Shown here one piece after another: positions 16,080-62,146 of a stretch of DNA of 64,000 nt. Source of the DNA: Eledone cirrhosa (lineage: Eukaryota); the NCBI GenBank assembly GCA_964016885.1, contig OZ024753.1, positions 42,284,001 to 42,348,000 of the forward strand. Reading direction: 5' to 3'. Position 1 is the first letter of the stretch, and each line of letters begins with the position of its first letter. Made by a program: the position numbers and the translations under genes. The notes below the pieces were generated by a model, which made no database searches, was not told the origin of the DNA, and saw only the letters and a program-made list of their open reading frames with translations.

Positions 16080-16149
<70 letters not shown>

Positions 16150-16321
16150 AAACGAAAATTCAGTGATGCATCTGAACACAATAAATTGATTTCAGATGCA
16201 TCACTGATTTTTCGTTTTCTATTATATCATACTCTGCTCTGTAAGAGCATAGAGTGCTCAACCGGCCCATGGAAGCATCTTAGCTACAATCACACACACA
16301 CATATATAAAGTCTGTAATAT

Positions 16322-17662
16322 TTATTCTATCTGTCCCACGTTAGCATAGATTGTATGTTCTAACCAAACTGTTTGAACCTCTTCCTTTTCACTGGGGAGG
16401 CCGAGTGTAACGTTCTTGTAACTGTGCCGCATAACAAATGCCACCCTCACCTGGCCCTTAGTGTCGACAGGGGTAACCCCAATAATGAAAACAATCTTGT
16501 TCAGCTTACGAGACACAATTACTTCTGGGTCATCATCAAACACATTTTCCAGGGAGTTACTAGCTTCGTATAAAGAATCTTCGTCACGTCTGGCTAGGAC
16601 GATCTGTTTTTTAGGCAGCTCAACTTTAGCAGTTGAATACAAATCTTCTCCTTCGACAGGGCTAAGTTTTATGTCCATGTTGTAAATAGCTGGGTTTGAC
16701 AATGTCAACGTAACTTTCTTCTGTTTGTTTGGGGTAAAGACATTATAGGTAGAGATTCGAAGTTCTGGGACATGGTACATAGCAGTTGATTGGATTTTAA
16801 ATTTGGTTGAAGCAGAGTTGTAGTCCGGCTTGATAAGGTTGTGGTCACATTTCTTACACCTGACCGACTTCCGAACCTGTAAATGTTTGTGTCTGGGGTA
16901 CATATTATTAAACTGTACCGGTTGGAATTCAGGCGATGATAATCTTTGATCAATTGTTGTTATTTTGTTCAACTGTATAGGATTAGTAAAGATTTCTTCG
17001 TTAAGGTCATCGAATTCAGTCACTGTCTCTGCAGGTTCTATCTCCAAGACTGTAGTACAGTCATCATCATGAAGAGCTGCCGAGGGGCTGTTTAATGCCT
17101 TTCTCTTCAGAGCCACAGTCGCCAAACCGAATTTATCGTTATAATAAATATGGCCACGCCTTTTAATAAATTTCTCCCGTTCCTTTTCAGAGTTCTCTTT
17201 CAGGGAAAGCTTCTTATAATATTCTAACAGCATTGTAACTCTATCAAGATGAGGGCTTTCCAAATCTTGCCAGCCTCCCGTAGCAATAGGTTTGTCACCA
17301 ATACCTATATCTCTGGTGGTCCAACGACAAAATCCACAAGCTAAATAGTACATCTTTTTCGGAATATTCTTGGTCGGATCCTCTGGGTTGACAATGAAAG
17401 TATTTGTGGCCCTGGTAGATAATAAATGTCCACAGCTGGGGCAATCAAAACAACTGCCACATCGGTTCTTACGGAGTTTCGCCTCCGTTGATGGTAGATT
17501 TTCAAGACAACATGGACAGAAGTGAGAATCCACTTCGTGTAGAAGACAATCGCCACATCTCAACTTAAAACAATGTCGGCACAGATAAAGCCAACAAATT
17601 GGATGTTTCTTGCCACAATCACAAAGGTATTTCACCTTGCCAATATCTCGGTACGTCGACAT
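16322..17662 (-). CDS. DCTN4: Dynactin subunit 4 (p62), single-exon 446-aa ORF
   Basis: Uninterrupted ORF with dynactin p62 motifs: LYLCRHCFKLRCGDC..HEVDSHFCPCCLENLPSTEAKLRKNRCGSCFDCPSCGHLLSTRA, YYLACGFCRWTTRD, RCKKCDHNLIKPDYN. Confidence 0.96.
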   Translation of the reverse strand: MSTYRDIGKVKYLCDCGKKHPICWLYLCRHCFKLRCGDCLLHEVDSHFCPCCLENLPSTEAKLRKNRCGSCFDCPSCGHLLSTRATNTFIVNPEDPTKNIPKKMYYLACGFCRWTTRDIGIGDKPIATGGWQDLESPHLDRVTMLLEYYKKLSLKENSEKEREKFIKRRGHIYYNDKFGLATVALKRKALNSPSAALHDDDCTTVLEIEPAETVTEFDDLNEEIFTNPIQLNKITTIDQRLSSPEFQPVQFNNMYPRHKHLQVRKSVRCKKCDHNLIKPDYNSASTKFKIQSTAMYHVPELRISTYNVFTPNKQKKVTLTLSNPAIYNMDIKLSPVEGEDLYSTAKVELPKKQIVLARRDEDSLYEASNSLENVFDDDPEVIVSRKLNKIVFIIGVTPVDTKGQVRVAFVMRHSYKNVTLGLPSEKEEVQTVWLEHTIYANVGQIE

Positions 17663-18224
17663 TACTGCAACCGGAAACTACAGTAATGTCAACTTCTCGT
17701 CTTTTCTCCACCAGTTCTCGTTCTTCTATGTCATCTTTGTAGATTCATTATTTTCGTACTTTTTTCTGTATTTTTCTCTCACAGTAAAATTACTTTATCA
17801 ATCGGTTGTAGAAGAAATAAGAAGTAATATAAATTTTAATAGTAAATAACAGAAATATATGTTCCTTTGTGTAGACAAGGAAACTGTCGTACAAAAATTT
17901 AGTCTGCTACAAACATGGAGATTTCAAATGGACAGAATGTTGAGGTAGAATTATTATAATAAAACAGGGATGTGATATAATATAAAGTCAAATGATTATA
18001 TATAACTTTAGTTGGTCGGATTAAAGGCTCTGCGCTCTAAGTTCAAATCCCGCCGAGCTCAACTTCGCCGGTTCCACTTGAGATCGATAAATGAAATACC
18101 AATCCAGTATTAGGCTGAATCACTCTCTCCTAGTTCTTCAATGTATGCCAGGGTATTTATCACCCTATGTTAGCTTTACAATGTGTACCTAGGTATCTAG
18201 CACCCTAGACACCTACTGTCACTT

Positions 18225-18290: not shown

Positions 18291-18320
18291 GACTCTACAC
18301 TCGAGTCTGAGTGGTGTTTC

Positions 18321-18957: not shown

Positions 18958-20004
18958 GTAAGCTATTAATTAATTAAATATCTTTTAACTTTCAATGTAT
19001 CACCTATAGCTCTAAGATTAAAAAATGTAGATAAAAATACAACACTTGCAATTATATATTTTTTCATTTGTTTAACATATCAACTATTTTTATAATCAGC
19101 TTAAAACATTCTCTTATCAATTTATTATTGATTAAATTATATTTTGATACTGGGGATATTATTTACCAAGCAAATGCAGATAAGATATGATATGATATGC
19201 TTCACGTTTTTATAGCTACACACAAACATATAATATATATTGTGTATATATATCTATATATATATACACAAACATTATATAATATATATCACATTATACA
19301 ACTCAACATACGGCATCTCGATATTGTTTAGGTCAACTCGTGAGAAAAGACTATCCTGTTTTTCGTCATTTTTTTCCGTTGTTTTCGCCCGCGAGGGACA
19401 TTATATATATATACATATATACATATTATAATTGAATATAAAAGAAAAATTGATATATATATATATATATATGTTTGAAGTAATTCTGCCAGAAAGGTCC
19501 AGGAAAAAAGAGTGCTCGGTGTAGGTTACAGAGCTTAATAGTTATGTAACAAACAACATAAGATAATTATTTCATTTACCAGTGGTTTCTTGTAAGATAA
19601 ACGTCCATGGTACTTACAAGAAACCACTGGTAAATGAAATAATTATTTTATGTTGTTTATTACATAACTATATATATATAGATATAGTAGAGTGTCGGGG
19701 CCTGACGGCTGAGCTCTTGCCATTTCCACAGCAACATGTGCGTGTGCTGGACCTTCGTCGGTTCTGGCGATGAGTGTTCCAGTTGTTCGAACAATAGAAC
19801 AGTCTGCTCGCAAACATTAACGTGGAAGTGCCCGAGCATTACACAGCCATGTTCCATCAACTAACGTTAATTCTCAGGGAGATTGAAGGTGACACTGTGT
19901 AACATAGAGGCACAACCTAGTTGACTGGAGCAACATGAAATAAAGTGTCTTGCTGAAGGTCACAACACGTTGCAGGGCATTGAACTCATGACTTTACGAT
20001 CGCA

Positions 20005-20066
<62 letters not shown>

Positions 20067-20804
20067 TAGAAGGGGTATTTAATATGTTGGAAGTCCGACA
20101 AATATAAATGTTTATAACTGATTTAGAGCACTCAACAGTTCCTGGAGTAAATATTAAATGATATTAAATAAATGAAAACTATATTTATAAAACATATATA
20201 TATATGTGTGTCTCTCTCTCTATATATATATGAGTGCATAAGGTGTACAGCGTATTACTATATCTAAAAGAGATCTCTATACATTTATAGAGTAATGGTT
20301 ACTATACAATTGCTACACATATATATATATGAAAAGGTTCAGGACCCCAACAGCAGAGCTCAAGCCGTTTCGACGGCTATTTCTGGACCAAATTAGATTT
20401 TTGTATCGGGTACTCTGGTTCTTTACCACACTTCCTTCGTTAAATATATATATTTAATCTCATCATCATCACCGTTTTACGTCCATTCTTCCACTCTAGC
20501 ATGGGTTAGACGGGTTGTCCTGTTGTGGGTCAGGTGACCGTGTCTTGCTCATACGGGAACTGATTTTGGCTTGATTTCTACAGCCTTTCCTGACACCAAC
20601 CTCATTTACAGTGAGGGCTGGGTGCTTTTTTACTGTGGCGCCTACACGACCACCTTTTACACGAGCCTACCCTTCTGGCGTGGGTTATGGGAGTTATGAC
20701 CCAAGCCAGTTCTTATTGGAGTTGCTACCCTCCTAGACGAGTGGGTTACCTCTGGCACGTACCTTCCATTTTTGACAGGGTCTGTACAGCTGGATGCCTG
20801 CCCT

Positions 20805-23800
20805 TCACTTTACAGAGTGTACTGGGTACATTTTATTGTGGCACCAACACAAACACATCACAGAGTGTACTGGGTACATTTTATTGTGGCACCAACACTA
20901 ACACATCACAGAGTGTACTGGGTGCATGTTACCATGACACCAACACTACCACTTTACAGTGTACTGGGTGTATTTTATTGTGGCACCAGCACTACCACTT
21001 TACAGAGTGTACTGGGTACATGTTATTGTGACACCAACACTACCACTTTACAGAGTGTACTGGGTACATATTATTGTGACACCAGCACTACCACTTTACA
21101 GAGTGTACTGGGTACATGTTATTGTGACACCAACACTACCACTTTACAGAGTGTACTGGGTATATGTTATTGTGGCACCAGCACTACCACTTTACAGAGT
21201 GTACTGGGTACATGTTATTGTGACACCAGCACTACCACTTTACAGAGTGTACTGGGTGTATTTTATTGTGGCACCAGCACTACCACTTTACAGAGTGTAC
21301 TGGGTACATGTTATTGTGACACCAGCACTACCACTTTACAGAGTGTACTGGGTACATGTTATTGTGACACCAGCACTACCACTTTACAGAGTGTACTGGG
21401 TGTATTTTATTGTGGCACCAGCACTACCACTTTACAGAGTGTACTGGGTGTATTTTATTGTGGCACCAGCACTACCACTTTACAGAGTGTACTGGGTACA
21501 TGTTATTGTGACACCAGCACTACCACTTTACAGAGTGTACTGGGTACATGTTATTGTGACACCAGCACTACCACTTTACAGAGTGTACTGGGTACATGTT
21601 ATTGTGGCACCAGCACTACCACTTTACAGAGTGTACTGGGTACATGTTATTGTGGCACCAGCACTACCACTTTACAGAGTGTACTGGGTACATGTTATTG
21701 TGGCACCAGCACTACCACTTTACAGAGTGTACTGGGTATAATAATAATAATGAAATTATTGTGTAAAGTGCTCAGGTGCACTACAACTCGTCAATATAGT
21801 ACATAGAATAATACACAAATGTCAGGGAAGTACATGTGTGTATGTGTTAGCTGTTCTGTTGGCGGATCTCGGGCAGCATGGAGGCCTTAAATGTTATTGT
21901 GACACCAACACTACCACTTTACAGAGTGTACTGGGTACATGTTATTGTGACACCAACACTACCACTTTACAGAGTGTACTGGGTACATGTTATTGTGGCA
22001 CCAACACTACCACTTTACAGAGTGTACTGGGTACATGTTATTGTGGCACCAACACTACCACTTTACAGAGTGTACTGGGTACATGTTATTATGACACCAA
22101 CACTACCACTTTACAGAGTGTACTGGGTACATGTTATTGTGACACCAGCACTACCACTTTACAGAGTGTACTGGGTACATGTTATTGTGACACCAGCACT
22201 ACCACTTTACAGAGTGTACTGGGTATATGTTATTGTGACACCAGCACTACCACTTTACAGAGTGTACTGGGTGCATGTTATTGTGACACCAGCACTACCA
22301 CTTTACAGAGTGTACTGGGTACATGTTATTGTGACACCAACACTACCACTTTACAGAGTGTACTGGGTACATGTTATTGTGACACCAACACTACCACTTT
22401 ACAGAGTGTACTGGGTACATGTTATTGTGACACCACCACTACCACTTTACAGAGTGTACTGGGTACATGTTATTGTGACACCAACACTACCACTTTACAG
22501 AGTGTACTGGGTACATGTTATTGTGACACCAGCACTACCACTTTACAGAGTGTACTGGGTACATGTTATTGTGACACCAGCACTACCACTTTACAGAGTG
22601 TACTGGGTACATGTTATTGTGACACCAACACTACCACTTTACAGAGTGTACTGGGTACATGTTATTGTGACACCAGCACTACCACTTTACAGAGTGTACT
22701 GGGTACATGTTATTGTGACACCAACACTACCACTTTACAGAGTGTACTGGGTACATGTTATTGTGACACCACCACTACCACTTTACAGAGTGTACTGGGT
22801 ACATGTTATTGTGGCACCAGCACTACCACTTTACAGAGTGTACTGGGTACATGTTATTGTGACACCAACACTACCACTTTACAGAGTGTACTGGGTACAT
22901 GTTATTGTGACACCAACACTACCACTTTACAGAGTGTACTGGGTACATGTTATTGTGACACCAGCACTACCACTTTACAGAGTGTACTGGGTACATGTTA
23001 TTGTGACACCAACACTACCACTTTACAGAGTGTACTGGGTACATGTTATTGTGACACCAGCACTACCACTTTACAGTGTACTGGGTGCACGGTATTGTGA
23101 CACCAGCACTACCACTTTACAGAGTGTACTGGGTGCACGGTATTGTGACACCAGCACTACCACTTTACAGAGTGTACTGGGTGCACGGTATTGTGACACC
23201 AGCACTACCACTTTACAGAGTGTACTGGGTGCACGGTATTGTGACACCAGCACTACCACTTTACAGAGTGTACTGGGTGCACGGTATTGTGACACCAGCA
23301 CTACCACTTTACAGAGTGTACTGGGTGCACGGTATTGTGACACCACCACTACCACTTTACAGAGTGTACTGGGTACATGTTATTGTGACACCAACACTAC
23401 CACTTTACAGAGTGTACTGGGTACATGTTATTGTGACACCAGCACTACCACTTTACAGAGTGTACTGGGTACATGTTATTGTGACACCAGCACTACCACT
23501 TTACAGAGTGTACTGGGTACATGTTATTGTGACACCAGCACTACCACTTTACAGAGTGTACTGGGTACATGTTATTGTGACACCAGCACTACCACTTTAC
23601 AGAGTGTACTGGGTACATGTTATTGTGACACCAACACTACCACTTTACAGAGTGTACTGGGTACATGTTATTGTGACACCAACACTACCACTTTACAGAG
23701 TGTACTGGGTACATGTTATTGTGACACCAACACTACCACTTTACAGAGTGTACTGGGTACATGTTATTGTGACACCAGCACTACCACTTTACAGAGTGTA

Positions 23801-24654
23801 CTGGGTACATGTTATTGTGACACCAGCACTACCACTTTACAGAGTGTACTGGGTACATGTTATTGTGACACCAACACTACCACTTTACAGAGTGTACTGG
23901 GTACATGTTATTGTGACACCAGCACTACCACTTTACAGAGTGTACTGGGTACATGTTATTGTGACACCAACACTACCACTTTACAGAATGTACTGGGTAC
24001 ATGTTATTGTGACACCACCACTACCACTTTACAGAGTGTACTGGGTACATGTTATTGTGGCACCAGCACTACCACTTTACAGAGTGTACTGGGTACATGT
24101 TATTGTGACACCAACACTACCACTTTACAGAGTGTACTGGGTACATGTTATTGTGACACCAACACTACCACTTTACAGAGTGTACTGGGTACATGTTATT
24201 GTGACACCAGCACTACCACTTTACAGAGTGTACTGGGTACATGTTATTGTGACACCAACACTACCACTTTACAGAGTGTACTGGGTACATGTTATTGTGA
24301 CACCAGCACTACCACTTTACAGAGTGTACTGGGTACATGTTATTGTGACACCAGCACTACCACTTTACAGAGTGTACTGGGTACATGTTATTGTGACACC
24401 AGCACTACCACTTTACAGAGTGTACTGGGTACATGTTATTGTGACACCAACACTACCACTTTACAGAGTGTACTGGGTACATGTTATTGTGACACCAGCA
24501 CTACCACTTTACAGTGTACTGGGTGCACGGTATTGTGACACCAGCACTACCACTTTACAGAGTGTACTGGGTGCACGGTATTGTGACACCAGCACTACCA
24601 CTTTACAGAGTGTACTGGGTGCACGGTATTGTGACACCAGCACTACCACTTTAC
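20805..24654. repeat. 48-bp minisatellite (~77 copies) interrupted by a LINE 3' fragment at ~21738-21890
   Basis: Unit actttacagagtgtactgggtacatgttattgtgacaccagcactacc, with no unique spacers. Confidence 0.97.
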
Positions 24655-25551: not shown

Positions 25552-25644
25552 TAAACAATAATTTCTTTGTGTGTCGTATATTCTGCTTGACATACATGTC
25601 CAATATACTTAAGATGTTGTGAATAGATGAAGTTTTGTAAGGGA

Positions 25645-27652: not shown

Positions 27653-30600
27653 ATGAACAACTCTACGATTGCAACCAACCCAGCCATTTCTTCCATCAAT
27701 AATTTATATCCTGCTATTGTTCAGTGTTTTGCCGTTATCTTCGCTGGTTATTGTGCAGGATGGACGAAAATAATTACTTTAAAAACAGGCAAAAGTATTG
27801 GAATTTTTGTCTGGAATTTCTGTTTACCTGCAATGGTATTGCAAGGAATGTGGGAACTACACTGGGAAGAAGTGAACTACAAGTTTATTTGTTGTGTGTT
27901 AGTCTCTAAACTTATCATCTTCTCTTTAGTTGTGCTAATCACATTTATTACCTACCGACCAATTAACTTTGGTTATGCTGGTATCTTTGGTATTTTTACA
28001 ACATGCAGCAATGATTTCGCCCTTGGCTATCCAATATGTAAGTATAACCTTCATCATCATTTAATGTCCATTTTTCACTCTAGCATGGGTTAGAGGAGTT
28101 TATCCCATTAGAGGCATATATAATATATATAGTTGTTGTAAAGTTGCAATAAATGCGTCTCTAGGCGGTATGCCGTTTAAGCACCCGATGCTCACGCGGA
28201 GCAGAGTATATACTTATAGATAACGAGGAATCGGTGATGCATTAAAACACTATTTATTAACATATTACATATGTCTCTCTGACAATCAGCTCAAGGCAGG
28301 ATCTATTATAGATTGAACCTGACTCTGCACTCGCAAGGTCCTCAGATATGTTTATCGTTTTCATTCCTTGAAAACGATAAACATATCTGAGGACCTTGTC
28401 AGGTCAGGTTCAATCTATAATAGAGCCTGCCTTGAGCTGATTGTCGGAGAAACATATGTAATATGTTAATAAATAGTGTTTTAATGCATCACTGATTTCT
28501 TGTTACCTATAATGATATATACAGTTTTTTTTTAGAAGAGCAAATTCTATATTATATCAAAGCGTTTTAATATTTTGACCTTCACCTCATTGTTTTCTTG
28601 CAGTGAAAGCCTTATACGGTGAAAAGTCAATATACCTGAAATATATCTACCTCTTTGCTCCCATATCGTTGGCATTAATCAACCCTATCTGTTTTGTTCT
28701 CATGGAAATACATAAAAAACGAAATCCTGCTAATTTTCAAGAAAAGAAGAAACAGCCTTATGTATCTTTAATGGTTCTTCTAGATGTAATCAAGAACCCA
28801 ATTGTATTGATGACCATATTAGGAATGATCTTCAACGTACTCTTTAAACAAACCATTCCTATCATTATAAAGAATATTCTAAGTGTGTTAGGTAAGTGAA
28901 CATCTAAATATTCTCCCTTCTTCTCCTTCTTCCATTTATTCCTGAGAGGGTCGAGGGATGGGAAGAGTCCTGTCGGAAGCAACCGTCTCCAACTGGATCC
29001 CCCAAGTGGGACCAGCTGAACTCATGGATATTATCCAACCATCTTGCCCAGGGTCTACCTCTGGGTCTCATGCTGGTTGGTTTTGCTCATAAAACCAGAT
29101 ACATGGGAATATAGTGTAAACCAGGTACACCTGTATAAGTTTGTTCACCTGTTGATGAAATAAATACATTTAAACTCAAATTTCAAGATCAATATACTTT
29201 ATTTTCAATTATAGAAGACTATTTTAAACTTTAGTTATTCAATATTTTTTTCTTGTATTTTATATTGATTTTTTTTCTTTTCCACAGGTAATGCATTTGC
29301 TGCATCTGCTCTCTTCTACCTGGGCCTCAACCTGGTTGGAAAGACTAAGAACCAACTTGGTATCCAATTAGCTGTACCATTTTTACTGGTTCTTGCTAAG
29401 ACGTAGGTGTAGAGTTTTTTTAATTTTTTTTTTATTTCATAAAAAGAAAAAAAATTGCTGAATAATCCCTTGAGTCTCTCCAGGTAGAGCCACTACTTCT
29501 CCTAATTGAGTCTCTCCAGGTAGAGCTGTTATTTCTCCTAATTGAGAGTCTCTCCAGGTAGAGCCACTACTTCTCCTAATTGAGTCTCTCCAGGTAGAGC
29601 TGTTACTTCTCCTAATTGAGAGTCTCTCCAGGTAGAGCCACTACTTCTCCTAATTGAGTCTCTCCAGGTAGAGCTGTTACTTCTCCTAATTGAGTCTCTC
29701 CAGGTAGAGCTGTTATTTCTCCTAATTGAGAGTCTCTCCAGGTAGAGCTGTTACTTCTCCTAATTGAGTCTCTCCAGGTAGAGCCACTACTTCTCCTAAT
29801 TGAGTCTCTCCAGGTAGAGCCACTACTTCTCCTAATTGAGTCTCTCCAGGTAGAGCTGTTACTTCTCCTAATTGAGTCTCTCCAGGTAGAGCCACTACTT
29901 CTCCTAATTGAGTCTCTCCAGGTAGAGCCACTACTTCTCCTAATTGAGTCTCTCCAGGTAGAGCTGTTACTTCTCCTAATTGAGTCTCTCCAGGTAGAGC
30001 CACTACTTCTCCTAATTGAGTCTCTCCAGGTAGAGCCACTACTTCTCCTAATTGAGTCTCTCCAGGTAGAGCTGTTACTTCTCCTAATTGAGTCTCTCCA
30101 GGTAGAGCCACTACTTCTCCTAATTGAGTCTCTCCAGGTAGAGCCACTACTTCTCCTAATTGAGTCTCTCCAGGTAGAGCTGTTACTTCTCCTAATTGAG
30201 TCTCTCCAGGTAGAGCCACTACTTCTCCTAATTGAGTCTCTCCAGGTAGAGCTGTTACTTCTCCTAATTGAGTCTCTCCAGGTAGAGCCACTACTTCTCC
30301 TAATTGAGTCTCTCCAGATAGAGCTGTTACTTCTCCTAATTGAGTCTCTCCAGGTAGAGCTGCTACTTCTCCTAATTGAGTCTCTCCAGGTAGAGCTGCT
30401 ACTTCTCCTAATTGAGTCTCTCCAGGTAGAGCTGCTACTTCTCCTAATTGAGTCTCTCCAGATAGAGCTGTTACTTCTCCTAATTGAGTCTCTCCAGGTA
30501 GAGCCACTACTTCTCCTAATTGAGTCTCTCCAGGTAGAGCTGTTACTTCTCCTAATTGAGTCTCTCCAGGTAGAGCCACTACTTCTCCTAATTGAGTCTC

Positions 30601-45554: not shown

Positions 45555-45592
<38 letters not shown>

Positions 45593-45789
45593 ATGTAAAC
45601 AGAAATAACAACACAATTGGTTCAGTATATGGAAGGGATATATTAGGTTAATGCTTGATATAGCAGGATGAGGGTCTTAACGTTTCGGATGCTAGTCCAT
45701 CATCAGAAGAAAGAATGAGAAATAAGATAGATTGGGGGGACGGGTGGGTTGGAATTGGAAAAAATGTCTTTAGATAACAACAAGTCCTC

Positions 45790-45828
<39 letters not shown>

Positions 45829-49364: not shown

Positions 49365-52300
49365 CTTACATACAGCTACTAATTACTGTATAACTATTTG
49401 ATGTTAGAGTTACATCTGTGGCCAGCAGTTCCTGGATATTTTAATGGCAAGGGTTCCATCCCAATCATGAAAAAAAAACTTCCATGGGGAAAAAGACCCT
49501 ACATTGCTACTGAGTGGTGTAGAGAAATACAGAATGAAGTGTCTTGCTCAAGAACACAATGTATCACACTTCCATAAAATACTGCCTTGTTTTAACCCTT
49601 TAGTATTTATATTACTCTATATTTACTATTGTACTTTCATGGTAAACACTTTACCTTACATATCAAATCTACCTGATTTTGATATTTCTTCCGAGAACAA
49701 TACCTCAACATAAGTATGAATGGCTGGTTTGAACAGAAAAAGATGAGAGAATTCGGGCCAGATACACTTGGTTTAAATAGAAATTATCAACCTTACTACA
49801 CTCACCTGTTCTTTAAGTTTGCGACTTCTCTCTTTCTCTTCCATTTTTCTTCGTTCTTCTGCCTCTTGTTGTTTCTTTATTCTATAAATACCAGAATAAG
49901 ACATTCAGTTAAACCATCAACAAAAACATAAATCACTGATACACAAAAGGTTGAAGAAAAAAATATTCTAAATGTTTTTCATATTCTTACACTTGTCTTT
50001 TCTTCTCTCTCTCTTCCCCACCCAAGGGTTGTTGCCATGTGTTTAACCCTTTAGCATTCACATTACACTATGTATACTATTGTATTTTTGTGGTAAAGGC
50101 TTTACCTCACATAATTATCTCACAATATCGAATCTATGAGATTTTGAAAGTATTTATTTTGAGAACAATACCTTAACATCAGTATGAGTGACCAGTTAGT
50201 CAGTTTCAACAGAAACAGGTAGAGAATTCTGGCCGGTTTGAACATTAAAAAGCTCTCTTTACATGTACATCGCTATATTCTGGTGTCACCTTATACACAA
50301 AGAGGCAATAGGGCTGGTACTATACAAAAAGAAATAGGATATATTAAATAGAGAAATTAGTTTACCTAAAGCGCTGCCTTTCCCTCTCTTCCTGTAGTTT
50401 CACTTCCCTGAAACGGTCGGTGGAGTTGAACCTCTCTTCAAGTTTTCTAGTACTCTTGTCTTTTTTCTCTTGCTCCCGAATATCCCTGATTTGCCGAGCT
50501 TCAGCAACCTTTCGCATACGTTCTTCTCGTTTCCTGAAATACAAAACAGATTATACAGTGTGCGGGAGAGAAGACTGCGATGGTATGGACATGTGATGCG
50601 CATGGAGGATGACCGCTGGGTAAAGAAGTGCTAGTAGAAGGAAGACGCAGTAGAGGAAGACCATGAAAAACATGGGTGGAGGTGGTGAGAGCAGACCTCG
50701 GATCGCTGAAGCTCACGGAGGAGATGACGAAGGGCCGTGACAAGTGGAGAGATGTTGTGCTGAATAGGACCCGTCCCACCCTTGCAAGCAGGGAAAAGCG
50801 GACGTAAAATGATGATGAAACTAGGATCTCTTACCATCAAGAAACCCGAGAAACCCTCTATGAAATACAACACTAAGAGAACAGCTAAAACTTGAGGTGT
50901 GAGCTATAACAACAACATGATTAGAAAAGGGCCCCCATTATTAAAACATTTGAGAAACCTCCTCCGAGATGTAACTTCAGCGGCTAGATAATCTTGTATA
51001 AGTGAAAGCTGTAACATGATAAAAGTTGGGCCCTATCATTAACATACACAAGTTAGCAATGAGATACAACCTCAACAGAGACCAGCTAAACCTACAGAAG
51101 TGTAACAACATTATAGGGTTAGGGTCCTTTATCATTAAAACAGCCAAGAAACCTCCTATAAGCTACAACCTAGTGGAAAGCAAGCTAAATATTTAAAAAG
51201 GGGTTAAGACAGCAGATTAAAATCAAACTTGAGATGGTTTGGTTTAAAGAGGGGTTAATATGGTAGATTAAAGCTAAACTTGAGATGGTTTGGTTTAAAA
51301 AGGGGTTAAGAGGGTAGATTAAAGCTAAACTTGAGATGGTTTGGTTTAAAAAGGGGTTAATATGGTAGATTAAAGGTAAACTTGAGATGGTTTGGTTTAA
51401 AAAGGGGTTAAGAGGCTAGATTAAAGCTAAACTTCACACAATTTAATTTACTTTTTCTGTTCTTCCAACTTCAACCGTTGAATTTCCTCTCTCATCATCA
51501 GCCTCTCTCTATCTTTACGTTGTTTGTTCTCCAATTCACGTTTCTTCATCTCCTGCAAGAAAACAACAAAATTACAAACACATCAAACCCAACAACCTAA
51601 CACATAACTATATTTAATATTTACCATACATACCTAACATACTATATTGAGTATCTACTATATATATACGTAACATACTATAATGAGTATTTACCATATA
51701 TACCTAACATAACTATATTGAGTATCTACCATATATATACGTAACATACTATAATGAGTATTTACCATATATACCTAACATAACTATATTGAGTATTTAC
51801 CATATATAAGCAGAAAAATATTTGACCCACAAAAAATTTGATAGTAAAACGGTAGGGTGGGTGTGTATGGAGAGGGCTTGGGTGTCAGCTTATATCCAAG
51901 GTCAATATTTTGCTGATTTTCACCAACTTCAAAATTCTACATAAATGAAATGCTAAAATATTTTCTCTTTGGAGGTGAATATTTCACCGGTTTCACTTTG
52001 GAAGTGAATATTCCACCGGTTTCACTTGAAATTTGTTTCTGAGGTGTTTTGAATGAACATGGTCTTCAAAATGGTAGGAAATTGGTTTTAAAAAAATCAT
52101 TATGTAATGGAATTGTGAAATAAGTACTGGGGGTTGATATGACTAAATCCCTTCAAAATAGGTTCCGTAACATGGCAGAAGTCTAACGACTGAAAAGAAA
52201 CAAAACAAACATCTTACCTGTGAAATTATAGATTTTATTGGAGTTACAGATTTTATTGAAGTTTTCTTCAGGTAAGACTTAAAGTTGCCAAAACTTGCTA

Positions 52301-55300
52301 ACATATTCAAGCGAGAGTGAGTACTGTGCTTCTGAGCAGAGCCGGTCAAGGCACCAGTTCGGATATACTGAAACAATGAAACAAAACATTTTATCATACA
52401 TATTTAACCCCTTAGCATTTACATTACTCTATATAAACTATCATATTTTTGTGGCAAAGGCTTTACCTCACATAACATTGAATCTATGAGATTTTTATGT
52501 TATTTATTTTAAGAATACCTTAACATCAGTATGAGTGGCTAATTACAGCCGGTTTAAATGCTAAAGGGTTAACAGATGTACAAAAAGTCTAATTGCTTGA
52601 AACCAGTAAAAGACTATATCTTACCTTTCTTAAGCTGCAGTCATTTTTATTAAAGCTTCTGTTAGCCAAGGAATAACTGGAGTTCAAACTAGTAACAAAC
52701 AAATACAATAAAAACATCAAGTATTTGCAACTTCGAGAAATAATTTAATCTCATATTTTAACTTGTTTTTGTTAACAAACTGAACCCCTTTAAAAAACTT
52801 CCATCATAATTTTATATAAGAACCAAGTTATGTTCCAAATATCAACTTAATAATGAGAAAGTTAGTCATATATATATATAGAGAGAGAGAGAGGGAGGGG
52901 GCTGTCCTTGGCTATATTTACATTTGTGTGTGTCTTTACTTAGCAGTTTGACAAAAACAGAGATTGATAAAATAATTACTGGAATTGTATTAAGTACTAT
53001 GATTGATTAAATCAAGGCAGTGCCCCAGCATGGTCACAGTCTTAATGACTTAAAACAGTAAAATAAATAACGTATCGCCAACTGCTAAAACATCTCATTA
53101 CGATACATAAATAAATTGTAAAGAAAAAATAATTAAATTTGAAGTGAGAAATACTTACAGAAAACTATGGATTCCTGTTAAAAGATAATAAAAATAAACA
53201 TTAAAATACATATATAAATATAAGTTTAATGTTTTAAGAAATACAGAGCCTCTGGTCATAGAAATCCCCACACAAAACAAGCTTGTCTCTCAAGCCTGGA
53301 AGCTCAGCAGGCCAGTGCTTATTCCTGGTCTTCATGGCATGAAGCGACTGAGAGTACAAGACTTCCTCCAGGATAGGACACCAGTCTATCACAGGGTTAA
53401 ACCCTCAGTTATTGCTGGTACTCATTTTCAGCTGAGTATACTGAAATGATATGTATGAAGCCTGTTACAAGGGCTACATGGCCACATGGCCAAACTCTGA
53501 TTTAGCAGTGAAAATTACCTTAAAATACTAAAATACCTAAAAACGGCCCCGAAGTACTTGAACTTCTCCACCTGCTTCAGTGTAACCCCATTCAAGTGCA
53601 GAGCATACTGGGCAGGCTTTCTTGAGTGAATGAGCCCCGTAGTTTTTGTAGCAAACCTACCTATCAGGTGCATGTCAGAGATCACCTTCCAATGAGTTAA
53701 GAAGCATCACCATGTTGTTTGCAAATATCAGCTGACCAATCCTACACCTCATGGTCTTCACAACACCTCAATTCTGGCTGACTCAATAAAAAGCACCTGG
53801 TCCACACTGTAACGTAAATAGGGTCTGGAAGGGCATCCAGCCGTAGAAACCAAGCCAAAATACAGATCCTTATGAGAAAGACATGGTCACCTGACCTGAA
53901 TTGTCTCACAAGGTGACAACCTGTCTAACCCATGAAGGTGTGGGAAATGGATGTTAAATGATGATGATGATGATGATGATGATAATGATGATGATTCATT
54001 GACTTTGTTAATATGTTGAAATAAAAGTACAAGGAACTCACCATTCTGTTTGGGTGTAGAATGTGTTGATGGAGCTGTGTATACGTTAATCAAGGTTTCA
54101 ATTTTCGCCTACAATAAATAGATTAAAAAAATATAAACATATGAAAAGGGCTGAATATAAGTTTAATGTTTTAAGAAATACAGAGCCTCTGGTCATAGAA
54201 ATCCCCACACAAAACAAGCTTGTCTCTCAAGCCTGGAAGCTCAGCAGGCCAGTGCTTATTCCTGGTCTTCATGGCATGAAGCGACTGAGAGTACAAGACT
54301 TCCTCCAGGATAGGACACCAGTCTATCACAGGGTTAAACCCTCAGTTATTGCTGGTACTCATTTTCAGCTGAGTATACTGAAATGATATGTATGAAGCCT
54401 GTTACAAGGGCCACATGGCCACATGGCCAAACTCTGATTTAGCAGTGAAAATTACCTTAAAATACTTTGTGTCCCCCGTCCCCCCCAGAAGTGTGTGTTT
54501 ATGTGCATGTGTTCATGTACCTGTATTCCAGGGTGTGTGTGTGCTCATGTACATGTATTTGTGAGAGTGGGTGTGTGTTCATTTACATGTATTTGGGAGT
54601 GTTTGTGTTCGTCTACATGTACATGTACGTGTGCATGTGATAGAATAAAGCAAAGGTGTTTCAGGAATCTCCACTAACCATTCCACAATTGAAAGTAAAA
54701 TCTGAAAGACTAAACTTCAAAAGACTTACTTCACTTTCATCCTCGTCAGAATCCTCAACATCAGCATCATCATCTTGGTCCTCGCGACCCACATTTCCGT
54801 TGCTCAACCGATCTTTCTCCTCCTTGGTACAATGTCGTTTGCTCTCAGCATTATATACATTTTCCACCTCTTCACTCATTCTTTTGCGAGCACGGCTCCT
54901 GAAAGTTTAGTAGTGTCATTTTTCCATTATATATATATATACATTTCACAAGTTAGAAAGTATTTGCACAACGTCCGTACACATACACACACACACGTAT
55001 CATAATCACCATCATCATCATTTGCAAGGGTGGGACGGGTCTTATTCAGCACAGCATCTCTCCACTTGTCACGGTCCTTCGTCATCTCCACCGTGAGCAT
55101 CAACGATCTGAGGTCTGTTCTCACCACCTCCGCCCATGTTTTTCGTGGTCTACCTCTACCACGTCTTCCTTCAACTGGCATTTCCTGGCACTTCTTCACC
55201 CATCGGTCATCCTCCACGCGCATCACATGTCCATACCACCTCAGTCTCCTCTCCTGTACACTACATTCTATCCCTCTCAGACACAGTTTCTTTCTCAACA

Positions 55301-58300
55301 CATTTATGCTGGGTCGTTCACGCACATTTACACTGCACATCCAACGGAGCATGCTTGCCTCATTTCTCTCCAGCCGTCGCATATCCTCTGCAGTTGCTGC
55401 CCATGTCTCACTACCATGCAGTAATAATATATATATTATGATTAGCAGTGGATCGGCAGTATCGGTTGAGTGTCGGACGCCATGCTTTCCAGCAGAGATA
55501 TGGCCCTTTACAGTCTGAGTTCAAATCCCGCCGATGTTAACTTTGCCTTTCATCCTTACGAGGGGTTGATAAAATAAAGTACCAGTAATGCACTGGGGTA
55601 ATTGCTGACCTTGTGCCAAAAGTAGAAACCATTACAGCACAGGTGCCACTTTAAGGTGAAAGATCTACAAGTTTATAAATACTCATGTATGTGTCTGTAT
55701 ATATATATATATATATATTACACATACATACACACCTCTTTGGATTTTGGTCTTTGTATTTATCATTACTATATATATCATCATCATCGTTTAACGTCCA
55801 TCTTCCATGCTGGCATGGGTTAGACAGGAATTGTCCCACATGAGGCAAGATTGGTCAGGAGATGTGTCTCGCTCGTAGAGGACTATCTGGCAGGTTTTCT
55901 ACAGTTAGATGCCCTTCCTAACACCAACCACATTTACAGTGTGGACTGGGAGCCTTTTACTGTGTTACCTACACGACCATATTACAATGTGGACCGTTTC
56001 TTTTTTCTTTTCCCCTTCTCTCTTTCCGCCTTTTTTTTCTCTCTCGAGAGATTTCTGGTGAGAATGAAAGCATTTTAGAATAGTTAAAACATTAGCTCCC
56101 TCCCTTGGCTTCTTACTTTAAAAAATGTTGACATTTGCTGCCACCGACAGGAGCACCACCACTGTACACACACATACACACTCTCACCATCTCTTTTCCA
56201 CAGATACAACCACTTTCATAAAATAAAACAGATTGTAACCCACCTTGTACATGGTCTGGAAGCTGTAGCTTCGTCAGCAGTTGCAACAGCAGCAGTCTGG
56301 CTGCTGTCTTTAAGTGCAGTGGCAGCAACCTTAGCTTGTTGATGCATTCGCCTGGTTCTGGTCCGCGGTTTCGTGGGACTTGAGGCTCGTTGGACTTCCA
56401 GGGAAGACGCAGATGATGAGGAGGTCACAGATATTCCGGCCTCGTGGGTCAGTTCCGAGTTACAGCTACTGGTAGTGGAGATCTTGCCCTCACTTGTTAC
56501 TTCATAACCAGAGTCAGATTCCCTACGAGTCTTAACATGGACATGTTCCTCACAATCTGGAGCATCAGCTGTCTGAGAGGCATCCTGCTTATTTGGACAT
56601 TCCTCGGTCTTGGGACTATCCTGGATTTTTGGACATTCCTCAGTCTTAGGACTACCCTGGCTTTTCGGACATTCCTCGGTCTTGGAACTACCCTGGATTT
56701 TTGGACATTCCTCGGTCTTGGAACTACCCTGGATTTTTGGACATTCCTCGGTCTTGGAACTACCCTGGATTTTTGGACATTCCTCGGTCTGAGGATTATC
56801 CCGATTTTTTGGAGAAACATCAATTTTGGGGATCTCTAATGAAGTATTTTCCTTTTTTATAACATAACTGCTGTTGTCAACTCTGTGTTCACTTTCTACA
56901 GGAGAAGCTGTTGGGGTCACTCTCTGGTTTGGAGAAATTTCATCAGGTTTACTGCAGCTAGGGACAGGACTTTTGATCTCAGCTTCTGATTCCTACAGAG
57001 ATAAAATAAAAATTGAATTTAAACAGCAATGTAGAATAATAATAACAACAATAATAAAAGTAATAATTGTTTCTACATTTGGCACAAGGCCAGCAATTTT
57101 GGGGGAGGGGAAAGTCAATTAAATCGACCGCAGTGCATTACTGGTACTTTATTTCATCAACCCTAGTGCATTACTGGTACTTTATTTCATCGACCCTGTA
57201 ACAATGAAAGGCAAAGCTAACCTCGGCTGGATTTGAAATAGCGTAACAAAAGGGTAAAAGTGTTTATAGTTATCTTAAAAAAAACCCAAAACATTCCATC
57301 AAAATTTCATGTCAGAACCTTTGTTAAGTTATATCCCAGACACCAGCTTGGCAATGAGAAAGTGAGCTGCTATATTACTAAATCTCTTGAAATTCTCAAT
57401 TAATTTCAAAACGTTAAGAAACATGGTAATGAAATGGTTAATAAAAATTGTCATTATCATCATCATCATCTAGTGTCCATATTTCCATGCTAGCATGGGT
57501 TGGACGAGTTGTCCCTTTGTGAGACAAGTTAGAAAGAAAACTAAAAGAAATAAACATACAATTTTCTAACATTTGTAAGACATACATACTTTGGTGTTGG
57601 TGGAAGACGTCTGAAGAGACGGAGGAGGTTCTTTGGATGAGGAGGAAAACGCAGGAGCTTCAGGATTAGAGGCATCAGACACTTGGTCATTTTTGGCCTC
57701 AGACACTTGGTCATTTTTGGCCTCAGACACTCGGTCATTTTTGGCCTCAGACACTCGGTCATCTTTGGCCTCAGAGACTTGGTTATTTTTGGAAGATGTA
57801 GAACATGTTTTAGATATTCCTCTAGCAGGTTGTTTCCTTGGTTTTACGGCAATCTGCACAGTTTTTTGTCTGGTAGAACGTTTTGTGTAGCTGTGGTTCA
57901 CATTATCATCTGATTCTGAATCTGGTGGGACATTCTCATCATTGCAAGTTGAAGGATAAGTTTCAAAGAAACAGAGAGGCCTTCCTGTAAAATTGCTGCA
58001 ATGGACAAAATGAAATGTGAAAAGAAATTCACTCCTCGGTACATCATCATCATCATCATTTAACGTCTATCTTCCATGCTAGCATGGGTTAGATGGGAGT
58101 TGTCCCACTTGAGGCAAGATTGGTCGGGTGACCGTATCTCGCTCGTATAGGACTGTCTGGCAGCATTTCTACAGCTGGATGCCCTTCCTAACACCAACCA
58201 CATCTACAGTGTGGACTGGGGCCTTTTTACCGTGTTACCTACATGGCCACATTACAGTGTAGACTGTGTTTTTTTTTGTCGTGACACCTACACGATCTCA

Positions 58301-60041
58301 GTTTGGACTGGATGTTGTGGTATCAACATAATTTTATAGAGAAAAGGTGGTGTTGGCAGGAGTGGGAGGATGGAGTAGGGGTAGTGGGTTGGGGTGTGTA
58401 TTTGGTTAATAAAAATATCTTAATATATTTGATACAACAACCAAACAATTTTATAATGGTCTCAGAAATCAGCAAAATATTCTTTACACCAAAGAGAGAA
58501 GAATCCCAGACATGTTCCTGATAGCAGGTATGGAACTCCTCCCATCTTTTTAATTTTCTCTTTGTTTTTGTCACTTCTATAAACTGTATTCTTGTTAATA
58601 AAGTCCATATTAAATAATGTTTGTTGTTTTTATAAAATTTCTAAAGCTTAGCATTTCCATCCTTGAATTTATTAAAATGTTTGTTAATCATTAAAATTAA
58701 TGTAAATGTAAACGAAGGCATGTACGTGGCCTAGTGGTTACAGTGTTAAACTCATAACCATAAGGCCGTGGGTTTGATTCCTGGACCCAGTGGTTTGTTG
58801 TGTTCTTGAGCAAGACACTTAATTCCACATCACACCAGTCCACTCAGTTGGGTGTTAACTAACTCCTGCAATGGACAGGCATCCTGTCCAGGTGGGGTGT
58901 CTTTCCCTGATAGAACTAGGAGCCCCTCTCATTAAATCACTTGATATACCCCCTATGAGGCTGGTTAAACCTACAAATGTGTGAGCTGTAAAACAAAAAA
59001 ATAACATGGAAAGAGACCCCTTTGTAGTCATGGATACACCCATGACTGAATGAAAAAAAAAACAAAAAAAAACACACACCTAACAAAGTTAATGTAAAAC
59101 AATTTTCACTAATTAATTAATTCAGGTAAAAGAAATGTCTTCTGCTCACCTGGATCGACGTATAAATGAAGGTAGTTCACTCCGTTTATTTCGGATACGG
59201 CGCTGTCTAGCTGATGGTGTCTTGGGTAACACTTGGAGTTGAGAACTGCAAAAAAAAAAACGAAATTACTAAAAATTGAAGTTGACCCTTTTGTATGACC
59301 TTATTTTTTATGAAATAAACCCTATTTTAATTTATTGAGGAAAAATTTTGAGGGATTTACTGAAATTATTAATCAATTCATTACTAAGGTTGTAGCTTAA
59401 TATAGGGGCTATTATATGAAATTATGTTGGAAGATTCTAATTTTAAAAAATGAAGGACCCGTCGGAAGGAATGTATAAGAGGAATCAGATGTAATGTGCC
59501 TCATTTTTAATCAACCCTGAAAGGACAAAAGCCAAAATTGACCTTGGTGGGATTTGAACTCATGGCAAAGCATTCTATCTGATGTTCTAACAACTCAGTC
59601 ATTTCACCATCTTTGACAACTGAGAGAACTGCATGAGGAGAATTTGGTAGAAGCTAGTATGGTCAGAATCATGTAATGACTTCCAGGAATTTAACAAAGA
59701 AATAAAACCAGTTGCCACCAATGAAGGAAGAAGAGAAAATGTCAATGTGGAAAATTTGGAAGAATTCCTGGAGTCTCAGGAAAATATCCATGATATAACA
59801 ACAGATTTTTTTTATGAATTAATGGTAAGAAGGCCAGTCTACTCCTTAACCTGGTTCATAATTTCATTACTATATCAGATCTTAATTAAACTTGTCTTTT
59901 TGTTTATTTAATTTTATCAAACCTGTTGAAGTACAATGTCTAACATGACATTGTCTGAGATTATCAGTTAATGTTGGCGGATTATGTGAGGTGGGAAGGT
60001 TTTATCATGTCACCACAACTGAGTGGATGAATTTAGTAGTA

Positions 60042-60090
<49 letters not shown>

Positions 60091-62146
60091 AAGGAAAAGC
60101 GAAGTAGTTTCAGATGTTCAAGTCCTTTAATAATAATGCTGTGATATATATTTCAGTGACGACACTGGCCACACTGTTCTGTGTGCGAGTGTCGTGTCAT
60201 CATCAGACAGCTTGTTACATAATAAGGTTATGTTTCCGAGGCAATCCAAATTGGATCGACAAGGGAACGGATGAATTGCGTGTTCTTGGGTTTTTCATCC
60301 GCTCCCTTGTGAGCACCAATTCATCCCCACCGGCTTGCGCAAGCGCATGTCCGAAGGAAGTTGACCATTCTCCACCGCAGACTTCAACGAAATATATGTA
60401 CTCTGTGTTTTTGCATTTATTCACTGTTGGTTCTGTTCTTTTCTTTTGTGTACTTTATGTCTGTTTTTCTTTGATTTTGTTCCATGTGATGGAAATTAGG
60501 ACTGTGTACCAGATTCACTAATGCCTGGAGCCCTGTAGTTATAATGCACGACACTGTCATTCAATATGTGGATAGAGTAACTGTGACACTAGAATCCCTC
60601 TCAGAACATATTACTTAAACACCTCTCTCCATATTATTTACTCACTTCAGTCTATATTTTTACGCACCTCAATCCGAATTATCACCTGAAAAGAATTTTT
60701 TAAATTCTTTTTTAATTCTTTAATTTCTAATTGTTAATTTCTTAATTGTTTAATTTATAATTTCTGATATTTGATTTAGGATTTTAATTTTTATTTCCAA
60801 CTCTCACTCTTAACTTCCAACGTAAAACCATGATACCTAGAATAAGTTTATTTTCCCTAATAAGGTGATGGTCAGTCGTACCGTCAACGCTTAGTGAGGG
60901 GTAGTATTATGACCTGTAAAAACTAACACTCTCCCATCTCCTCCGGCTCTCGGCTGACTGCCACAGCCGTGATGGGTAGCAGTAAAATATGGTACAGGCA
61001 TTGGTGGGCCATTGTTTTGGATGACAGGGTGAACTGACTAAGCAAATTTCGTTGAAGTCTGCGGTGGAGAATGGTCAACTTCCTGCGGACATGCGCTTGC
61101 GCAGACCGGTGGGGATGAATTGGTGCTCACAAGGGAGCGGATGAAAAACCCAAGAACACGCAATTCGTCCGTTCCCTTGTCGATCCAATTTGGATTGCCT
61201 CGGAAACATAACCTTATTATGTAACAAGCTGTCTGATGATGACACGACACTCGCACACAGAACAGTGTGGCCAGTGTCGTCACTGAAATATATATCACAG
61301 CATTATTATTAAAGGACTTGAACATCTGAAACTACTTCGCTTTTCCTTATTCGATATTTACTCCGTCACTCCTATGTGGAAAAAGTAGGTTGAATTGAAT
61401 TGCATCAATGTTTACCCTAATATATATATATATATATATATATATAATCATAATCGTTTAACGTCCATTTTCCATGCTTGCATGGGTTTCATGAGTTGTC
61501 ATATATATTTATATCCACTCTCTTGCTCTGGGACCCTGACTCCAGCCTGACTAGGAGTAGGAAGCTGTCATTCCCTGACATTATCTCAAGGGATACGGGA
61601 ATCAGTAGACAGGACCTGGGAGCAGCGATGGGGGACAGGGAATTCTGGGGCATGAGAGTGAGATCCATCATCTCGACAGTAGTCGACGAATGATGATGAT
61701 GATGATATAGATATCATCATCATCATCAAACGCCTGCTTTCTCTGCAAGCAATATTGGATCGTGTGAGATGGAAAGGTTTTATCATGTCACCACAAACAA
61801 GTGAATGAATTCAGTAGTAGTATTAGTAGTAGTAGTAGTATTAGTAGTAGTTGTAGTTTAGTGCACTTGTCGGACACCCATGTTCTAGACAGTTACCTAG
61901 TTGGTCTTATGGCAATAAACAAGTTTAAGAAAGGAGTATAACATACCTCTGACACTAACCTAGTTCACCTTATGGCAATAAACAAGTTTAAGAAACAACA
62001 TACCTTTGAAAAGCAGCTTTAGCTGTCTCCAGAATCTCATCAAGCCATGTGAAATGCTCTTCAAAGCCTTCCAAACATTCGTGAACAAACAAATCACTCT
62101 GCTGCACTAAATCCAAACCCAAGGTATGGGGGATTGTTATAGCCAT
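44245..62146 (-). CDS. INCENP: Inner centromere protein (INCENP), 17 coding exons, 1001 aa
   Basis: GT-AG, phase-consistent exons: 62146-62004, 59245-59150, 57995-57590, 56992-56244, 54898-54730, 54108-54042, 53174-53159, 52688-52625, 52367-52218, 51552-51452, 50533-50366, 49881-49806, 48706-48492, 47549-47453, 47125-46947, 46139-46021, 44435-44245 (3006 nt). It has N-terminal WLDEILETAKAAF and LPKTPS, an E/K/R-rich single alpha-helix, and an IN-box YDIDDLKSDDSTDEE..KPIPKWAQG...PDLNAMF..RFNHRSSSAHW. Confidence 0.93.
44570..44893 (-). mobile_element. Young SINE copy (twin of 41137-41463)
   Basis: About 325 bp, with only scattered substitutions relative to the 41.1-kb copy. Confidence 0.8.
44995..45060 (+). 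ncRNA. Minimal type I hammerhead ribozyme motif in a (TA)n-flanked element
   Basis: uauuuugu CUGAGGA agg...ccu GAAA u-auau-a UA augaaaua. The downstream tail (45070-45190) is homologous to the minus-strand fragment at ~20065-20195. Confidence 0.75.
45675..45710 (-). ncRNA. Very compact hammerhead-like motif
   Basis: Minus strand reads ucuu CUGAUGA u-gga-cuagca-ucc GAAA cg UU aaga. Palindromic AACGUU replaces stem III, suggesting a dimer-type motif. Confidence 0.55.
46685..46910. repeat. ~23-25-bp minisatellite
   Basis: Unit tgaccagtccaacccctgctacaa, ~9 imperfect copies. Confidence 0.85.
47200..47390 (-). mobile_element. 3' end of a LINE (CR1/L2-like) with an (ATT)n tail
   Basis: The same gagttgtagtgcacctgagcactgtacacaataatttcat tail occurs at ~1455-1670 (twice), 8605-8650 and 21738-21890. 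The clade assignment is tentative. Confidence 0.6.
50550..50815 (+). mobile_element. RTE-clade LINE 3' fragment
   Basis: Encodes a decayed ERRLRWYGHVMRMEDDRWVKKC...RGRP*KTW; homologous to 55020-55420. Confidence 0.8.
51195..51435. repeat. ~50-bp minisatellite (~4.7 copies) next to an INCENP donor
   Basis: Unit aaaaggggttaa...gtagattaaagctaaacttgagatggtttggttt. Confidence 0.85.
55020..55420 (-). mobile_element. RTE-clade LINE ORF2 C-terminal fragment (5'-truncated)
   Basis: Peptide HGSETWA...RRLERNEASMLRWMC...ERRLRWYGHVMR...GRRGRGRPRKTW...DRDKWR followed by a (GAT)n tail. Confidence 0.88.
60087..61420. mobile_element. (TA)n-flanked element with 307-bp inverted arms, each carrying a hammerhead core (Penelope/retrozyme-like)
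   Basis: 60087-60393 is the near-perfect reverse complement of 61046-61352. The hammerhead gcugu CUGAUGA [long stem II] GAAA u-auau-a UC acagc lies at 61228-61301 (+) and 60138-60211 (-). Confidence 0.85.

Follow-up and report, generated by a model that had tools for sequence, protein, structure and literature searches.

Very probable Penelope-like element ends, single and head to head, with hammerhead motifs at (TA)n sites of an octopus genome

Insertions of Penelope-like elements (PLEs) have been described as having a 5′-truncated copy in inverted orientation at their 5′ end and a tail on one side only, with the origin of both inverted arms and tails given as still open in the accessible text of that survey (PMC8557442; cited papers are used here for the parts accessible to us). 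Head-to-head arms with junction palindromes in Adineta vaga Penelope were ascribed to self-priming (PMC3846280), tails correspond to the stretch between two start sites of the reverse transcriptase (RT) (PMC11167929), and Schistosoma holds opposite-strand pairs of hammerhead ribozymes 100–700 base pairs (bp) apart (PMC4209133). Within the PLEs, the Hydra clade, set apart by its RT phylogeny and a C-terminal endonuclease with a CxCX5C linker, prefers (TA)n targets in 26 of 27 families and includes Hydra-1_Obim, a family from the octopus O. bimaculoides; Penelope-13_HM is annotated with an inverted 5′-truncated copy and hammerheads on both strands, and in Hydra hammerhead cores helix II is flanked by an extra base on both sides while helix III has 3–4 bp (PMC8557442 supplement). 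Here we analyse a window of 64,000 nucleotides (nt) of Eledone cirrhosa (GenBank assembly GCA_964016885.1, contig OZ024753.1, positions 42,284,001–42,348,000, forward strand), in which we recognize 13 inserts, 5 of them head to head and 8 single copies. They are very probably 5′-truncated 3′ ends, that is, parts of the pseudo-long terminal repeats (pLTRs), of several families of endonuclease-type PLEs, most likely of the Hydra clade and inserted by copying. A reading of the letters alone (the original prediction) had proposed a class of hammerhead elements that invert themselves into locked ribozyme hairpins. The architecture had already been published for PLEs and is no new class, and fold-back is the state of a minority (5 of 13), not the general one.

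The head-to-head inserts, referred to by coordinates of the window, are as follows:
16150–16290, plus strand: inverted repeat without a hammerhead, kin of the 28131 insert; short inverted arm 16150–16180, 6-nt loop, main arm 16187–16290 with a tail of about 70 nt
19472–19668, minus strand: insert with only the 3′ half of a hammerhead in each arm; main arm 19472–19596 (minus) with a 69-nt tail, 16-nt loop, short arm 19613–19668 (plus)
28131–28521, minus strand: inverted repeat in an intron of GPR155; main arm 28131–28363 (minus) with a 74-nt tail and the GAAA box altered to GAGA, 5-nt loop, short arm 28369–28521 (plus)
28380–28467, plus strand: type I hammerhead core, sense to GPR155, pairing with the upstream arm
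60087–60393, minus strand: short, inverted, tail-less arm of the 60087 insert, in an intron of INCENP
60138–60211, minus strand: hammerhead in that short arm, sense to INCENP
60394–61420, plus strand: 5′-truncated main copy of the 60087 insert, 834 non-coding bases and then a hammerhead; its tail-less end lies near 61352–61357 and its tail runs to 61420
61228–61301, plus strand: hammerhead of that main copy
20330–20446, mixed strands: a fifth insert, new to this analysis; short arm (minus) with a hammerhead 3′ half, 5-bp turn, then a tailed arm (plus) that lacks most of the duplicated part

In all five, the arms point their 5′ ends towards one another, and every insert combines one tailed with one tail-less arm. 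The arms are closely alike in aligned bases (26/27 at 16150, 57/59 at 19538, 141/151 at 28207 and 303/307, or 98.7%, at 60087) and meet at a tight junction of 5–16 nt in three of four inserts; the tight turn once supposed at 60087 does not exist, the 652 nt between its arms being part of the plus-strand copy. The tail, present at one end only, measures 68–74 nt in three inserts and about 70 nt at 16150. By self-BLAST, these inserts make up four of the six local inverted repeats in the window that reach 50 nt and 85% identity, and inverted repeats stand at all four sites that had been called hammerhead hairpins, but a whole core is present at only two of them: there is no hammerhead at 16149–16290, and the arms at 19538 hold the 3′ half only. 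The fold-back reported at 19538–19671 is present, its true extent being 19472–19668 with the tail that had been omitted. Nor are the families all unrelated in sequence, as had been stated, since the insert at 16149 aligns with that at 28131 (z = 19.9); the pairs 7482 and 19538 (z = 18.1) and 44995 and 20065 (z = 15.2) are likewise related. The predicted targeting of microsatellites stands, with (TA)n at the inserts; it is weak at 28131, where the only TA run, short and imperfect, lies to the left. Short, palindromic and TA-flanked as they are, such inserts might be taken for DNA elements resembling miniature inverted-repeat transposable elements, or for assembly artefacts. Their arms, however, differ at 1–10 sites and are asymmetric with a fixed tail, and they have single-arm relatives, a sequencing depth biased to the 3′ end and further inverted joints (see below), so that we give this explanation almost no weight.

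A structure-aware scan for the core together with helices I and III found six type I hammerhead cores in the window (minus strand, 7514, 45675 and 60138; plus strand, 28380, 44995 and 61228), whereas 100 block-wise dinucleotide shuffles yielded 0.31 on average and never more than 3; a stricter scan recovered four of the six. The lone, unpaired hammerheads predicted at 7514, 44995 and 45675 are all among them. At gathering and E-value thresholds Rfam reported no ribozyme family in the window, hammerhead included, and its weak microRNA-like matches on hairpins and microsatellites were taken as chance. Cores in which each side of helix II carries one extra base and helix III measures 4 bp match those tabulated for Hydra. 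The hammerheads sit near the 3′ end on the element sense strand, 29–130 nt from the ends, and the distances fall at 29, 51 and 54 nt for tail-less ends and at 98, 119, 128 and 130 nt for tailed ones.

The single copies are as follows:
7485–7616, minus strand: full hammerhead 7514–7574, no host gene identified; tail-less, ending where the short arm of the related 19538 insert ends
44919–45190, plus strand: hammerhead (core from 45003, helix I bulged) and tail hairpin 45109–45132; antisense, in the last INCENP intron
45591–45789, minus strand: minimal hammerhead 45675–45710 with a 4-bp helix I and U at the cleavage site
8061–8184, minus strand: 3′ half of a hammerhead, its helix III of 5 bp, and tail hairpin 8104–8131
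20065–20194, minus strand: tail only, hairpin 20126–20148, of the 44995 family
14245–14412, minus strand: decayed, tail-less, kin of 28131 (z = 11)
19681–19800 (5′ limit approximate), minus strand: decayed, 8061 family, 3′ half intact and 5′ core changed
7290–7423, minus strand: decayed, 8061 family, hammerhead 3′ half at 7335
A stretch at 14101–14222 with weak likeness to 8061 (z = 5) and a hairpin at 63270, which lacks both a hammerhead and a (TA)n flank, were left out of the tally of 13. Minus-strand 3′ halves with a 5-bp helix III and a 9-nt loop recur at 7290–7423, 8061–8184, 19681–19800 and 20330–20446; judged from this stable helix III, a hammerhead of this family might act as a monomer, and the window contains no intact full core of it.

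The predicted Penelope-like origin is borne out by the one-sided tail, the inverted 5′-truncated copy and the hammerhead near the 3′ end, and the case that the inserts behave as PLE insertions is strong. With Adineta vaga Penelope (PMC3846280) and the anole Poseidon PAc (PMC11167929) they have in common a head-to-head inverted pLTR and junction palindromes, and with canonical PLE insertions an optional one-sided tail and AT-rich targets; they differ from the latter in being stump-sized, placed in microsatellites and without a discernible target-site duplication. Direct tandem pLTR copies, an optional feature in truncated copies, are absent from the 13 inserts. Around the 60087 insert and an adjoining repeat piece, 59979–60043 and 61757–61821 form a direct repeat of about 65 nt (86% identity), possibly an old target duplication.

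Membership of the Hydra clade is probable for the inserts in general and weakest for the 60087 family. By our own arithmetic on the accessible tables of PMC8557442, the published Hydra hammerheads lie 25–42 nt from the end in 10 of 25 families, 80–148 nt in 11 and elsewhere in 4, so that both the clade and the window (29–54 versus 98–130 nt) have two groups of 3′ ends. Further likenesses are the (TA)n target (also a Naiad feature), a tail motif at consensus termini and the occurrence in octopus. By eye, the hammerheads at 7514, 28380, 44995, 60138 and 61228 are of the type tabulated for Hydra and that at 45675 is of the minimal type; helix III of 7514 differs from that of Hydra-1_Obim only in a loop base. 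Unlike the Hydra elements, the window inserts have no linked open reading frame (ORF), and the 60087 family departs further in its long non-coding leader and degenerate tail. None of ten window k-mers matches Hydra-1_Obim or the other published consensuses, which makes the inserts other families; these octopus families are uncatalogued and may be new, as may their tails, longer than usual at 68–74 nt against the 30–40 bp stated for PLEs in general (PMC8557442).

Other described groups fit less closely. Minimal metazoan PLE hammerheads (PMC4209133) likewise have the extra base on the 5′ side of helix II, a helix III that is short or palindromic, a mostly dispersed and solitary occurrence, and opposite-strand pairs 100–700 bp apart, but most window cores lack their G10.1–C11.1 pair directly at the core, and 45675 fits best. 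Animal non-LTR retrozymes (bioRxiv 10.64898/2026.07.22.740005) are also non-coding, derived from PLE ends and equipped with type I hammerheads; they form head-to-tail arrays with a hammerhead per unit, whereas the window copies are single or head to head and no head-to-tail tandem array overlaps any hammerhead core in the window. Octopus Naiad PLEs share (TA)n targets, inverted copies and tails, but are described, in the accessible text of PMC8557442, as lacking a canonical hammerhead and as old remnants in cephalopods; the window has full cores, and the 60087 arms are nearly identical.

The tails contain a hairpin with a bulged stem followed by a near-palindromic octamer of motif GRGYRCTY, found at six loci and 31–61 nt before the microsatellite (200 shuffles: mean 0.075, maximum 1). 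Beyond those of the single copies, the examples are:
16231–16259, plus strand: tail hairpin with a 2-nt bulge, then GRGYRCTY
19510–19534: tail hairpin of the main arm of the 19472 insert
28179–28207: tail hairpin of the main arm of the 28131 insert
The hairpin begins at the tail boundary, where the tail-less arm ends, and the tail motif recurs at the termini of the Hydra-1_Ajap, Hydra-2_Ajap and Hydra-2_Amil consensus sequences. It is probably the recognition site of the element protein. The literature searched, which left out most subscription papers, held no paper on the tail hairpin, and as a shared cis element of Hydra-type PLEs it may be new. Common to unrelated families of the window and to coral and sea-cucumber Hydra ends, it offers a concrete cis element for in vitro work on PLEs.

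Contigs from four sequencing runs were compared with 60394–61420 only. On these 1,027 bases of the 60087 family the DNA runs gave 2,218–2,318 contigs per run, in line with the dense repeat population that had been predicted. All 30 bins of the segment were covered in the DNA runs and contigs bridge 61046, which shows that the apparent spacer between the arms belongs to the plus-strand copy as its upstream part. Summed contig depth rises from 1.4–26k upstream to 66–254k around the hammerhead (240–254k at 61304–61338) and is 34–58k in the tail. In each DNA run 19–20 contigs leave at 61357 into (TA)n, making the tail-less end a feature of the family. Among 11 joints listed, 4 besides the window's own join opposite strands. 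At 61167 a commoner second subfamily joins, seen in 27–31 contigs and with other letters upstream. The short arm of the 60087 insert carries the family-minority allele of the main arm at 13 of 15 listed positions, which points to a single source of both arms; most likely the inverted arm was copied at insertion from that source. Run X4, contigs of unknown kind, covers 24 of the 30 bins with a spectrum of changes (A>G 11, T>C 4, C>T 12, G>A 8) similar to that of the DNA runs; contigs lose rare variants, which makes them uninformative on editing. A long hairpin lies at 61130–61181, just upstream of the 61228 hammerhead; in the dominant subfamily the letters upstream of 61167 differ and the pairing is still apparent by eye.

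Several points weigh against a Hydra-type PLE origin or its supports. Runs X1–X3 represent one sample, possibly that of the assembly itself, summed contig depth is not a copy number, and minority alleles common to both arms could also stem from gene conversion. Ten window k-mers, one from a loose contig end, had no match in the published consensuses, a comparison in which line breaks can hide matches. By eye, the 834-nt non-coding leader of the 60087 copy exceeds Hydra 3′ untranslated regions. Of the 22 short frames in the 60087 insert none rose above threshold in Pfam (one match, E = 0.23, lay below the cut-off), nine short Hydra ORF motifs gave only three chance-like matches elsewhere in the window, and pattern scans of metagenome and viral contigs for two motifs returned no loci. 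The tail-hairpin descriptor was derived from the window's own tails and is not matched by the 60087 tail; covariation on six tails was equalled in 48 of 500 shuffles, with one row misaligned; and one 11-mer of the tail motif also lies inside a Naiad consensus. The tails align poorly in MAFFT, and none of ten folded singly went beyond z = −2. A minus-strand frame near 60420 with a faint likeness, by eye, to a Hydra C-terminal motif was rejected, as contigs tie that stretch to the plus-strand copy.

No ORF with the telomerase-like RT and GIY-YIG endonuclease of PLEs, the autonomous partner for which a search had been suggested, was found in the window, as expected of truncated ends. Compatible with insertion as a PLE end, the 60087 family at least could be a dedicated non-autonomous element, a PLE passenger comparable to short interspersed elements (SINEs) or retrozymes, and we hold this to be a serious possibility, a little short of an even chance. 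The 834 nt upstream of its hammerhead are multi-copy throughout the 30 bins and across 61046, its insert shows no PLE protein signal, and the commoner subfamily has different letters upstream of 61167. The copy is, however, cut at 60394, and an ORF could lie further upstream; depth climbs towards the 3′ end as in 5′-truncated retroelements, and tandem hammerhead units such as those of retrozymes are missing. Of the non-autonomous population that had been proposed, only the 60087 family finds partial support; the inserts of the other families are too short for a verdict.

We propose that the inserts arise when the element protein nicks a (TA)n tract, as PLE biochemistry suggests, and element RNA is copied from one of two family-fixed points, about 30–55 or about 100–130 nt past the hammerhead; the two fixed 3′ ends are observed, whereas nicking and priming would follow by analogy. 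Copying would mostly halt early, giving 5′ truncation. In a minority of events the new complementary DNA (cDNA) would fold back or switch onto itself and be copied towards its own start, producing a head-to-head arm that stops at the tail boundary and is linked to the opposite flank of the TA tract. We moderately favour this fold-back of nascent cDNA with resolution at the tail boundary. Alternatively, the second arm could come from a second RNA, with a dimeric protein priming both strands of the palindromic (TA)n and two truncated cDNAs joining head to head. The anole protein cuts and extends both strands and was modelled as a dimer (PMC11167929), the 60087 arms start 652 nt apart with a junction homology of only about 3 nt, and single copies (7485) have the tail-less end as well, which makes it a true start site. 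Against two RNAs, the arms meet within 5–16 nt in three of four cases, which would be rare for two independent truncations, rare alleles are common to both arms, and one tailed and one tail-less arm always occur together, with a chance of about 0.003–0.03 if independent (for a tail fraction of 0.2–0.5, in a small and ascertained sample). We therefore regard a two-RNA origin as possible and rather unlikely.

Whether the fold-backs act on their host RNAs can be considered where genes were mapped:
16322–17677, minus strand: DCTN4, intronless
27653–41836, plus strand: coding exons of GPR155
62146–44257, minus strand: INCENP
28043–28602: GPR155 intron with the 28131 insert
59254–62005: INCENP intron with the 60087 insert
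about 44446–46020: last INCENP intron, with the copies at 44919 and 45591
The introns holding inserts have splice signals at their flanks, and four inserts lie in mapped introns, too few for statistics. The original prediction saw in the fold-backs a functional lock that neutralises sense ribozymes in host introns and that ADAR editing unlocks; in a weaker form, locked copies would survive selection better. Two of the three hammerhead cores sense to a mapped intron are indeed paired, the unpaired one at 45675 being the weakest, and the head-to-head order places the antisense arm ahead of the sense arm in the transcript, whichever strand is transcribed. In a folding model the sense core pairs with the other arm and pairing abolishes helix I, whose probability at 60138 and 61228 is 0.94–0.96 alone (four of five pairs) and 0.0 in the insert; helix I of 28380 is disfavoured even alone (0.01–0.04). 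Retrozymes are, moreover, depleted from Xenopus introns (bioRxiv 10.64898/2026.07.22.740005), and hyper-editing is heavy in octopus and in palindromic repeats, with a lizard Penelope as a major target (PMC5625713).

However, every inverted pair necessarily includes a sense arm, which builds in the rule that sense cores are paired. In both intronic pairs the main copy, the one with the tail, runs antisense to the host gene, meaning that inversion added a sense hammerhead in each and silenced none; at 28131 the mutation lies in the core on the antisense side, and the sense core at 28380 is intact. Three of the five head-to-head inserts have no complete core to lock, and in the last INCENP intron the sense motif at 45675, though the weakest of the set, stands without a pairing arm. 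In published tests minimal metazoan PLE hammerheads hardly cleaved by themselves: cleavage was absent for a single Schistosoma motif in the accessible data of PMC4209133, and the anole hammerhead cut only with protein (PMC11167929). As for unlocking, a fully A-to-G edited duplex, a rough proxy that overstates I–U pairing, was still at −109 to −114 kcal/mol compared with −23 to −26 kcal/mol for the monomer, and by the same rough proxy five core adenosines would themselves be editing targets. The antisense pairing thus stands in the model and the neutralising role does not: we consider a functional lock very improbable and, from the modelled energies, the freeing of hammerheads by editing unlikely, and a weak selective filter on intronic copies is possible. 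The pairing of a sense ribozyme by an antisense arm is an automatic outcome of head-to-head insertion, which corrects a tempting reading. In host pre-mRNA the arms would pair and mask the hammerhead as a by-product of insertion, likely an ordinary ADAR substrate and no switch.

ADAR editing of the intronic fold-backs is plausible by analogy. Octopus had the highest modelled fraction of double-stranded RNA (dsRNA), and a lizard Penelope and a palindromic frog repeat were heavily edited, while the repeat classes behind octopus hyper-editing are not annotated in the accessible part of that study (PMC5625713). One tentative suggestion is that self-inverted ends of Hydra-type PLEs are a main source of the unusually abundant, near-perfect dsRNA, and so of hyper-editing, in octopus pre-mRNA, with the conserved bulged tail hairpin setting their geometry: serving the element protein in the start of copying as well as in the resolution of the fold-back, it would yield one tailed and one tail-less arm. 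No paper on PLE fold-backs as a source of octopus hyper-editing was found in the literature searched, most subscription papers lying outside that search. With duplexes of 151 and 307 bp in the introns of GPR155 and INCENP pre-mRNA, the share of PLE fold-backs in octopus hyper-editing becomes testable.

The 16150 insert lies about 30 nt beyond the DCTN4 stop, antisense to that gene; an AATAAA signal directly follows the stop codon, and the mRNA may end just before the hairpin. A GPR155 exon of the window has 91% identity to Octopus bimaculoides and 82% to Argonauta, and the named relatives of the DCTN4 protein are other molluscs (50–55% identity); judged by these sequences, the host is an octopodid mollusc.

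Other repeats surround the inserts. The excluded hairpin at 63270–63349 is a perfect 35-bp AT-rich stem with a 10-nt loop. Stretches at 54930–55520 (minus) and about 50400–50900 (plus) are remnants that we take to resemble the C-terminal end of an ORF of a long interspersed element; Pfam had no match on the former. Minisatellites occupy 20806–24654 (48 nt, 80 units), 29470–33906 (36 nt, 123 units), 2215–3210 (49 nt, 20 units), 10258–10919 (40 nt, 16 units) and 40043–40823 (41 nt, 19 units), and the 48- and 49-nt units resemble parts of a dispersed repeat. A 313-nt direct duplication (53217–53529 and 54154–54466, 99.7% identity) lies inside INCENP introns. Finally, tRNA-like matches just below the Rfam gathering score, at 41399–41456 and 44829–44886 (minus), are probably SINE heads.

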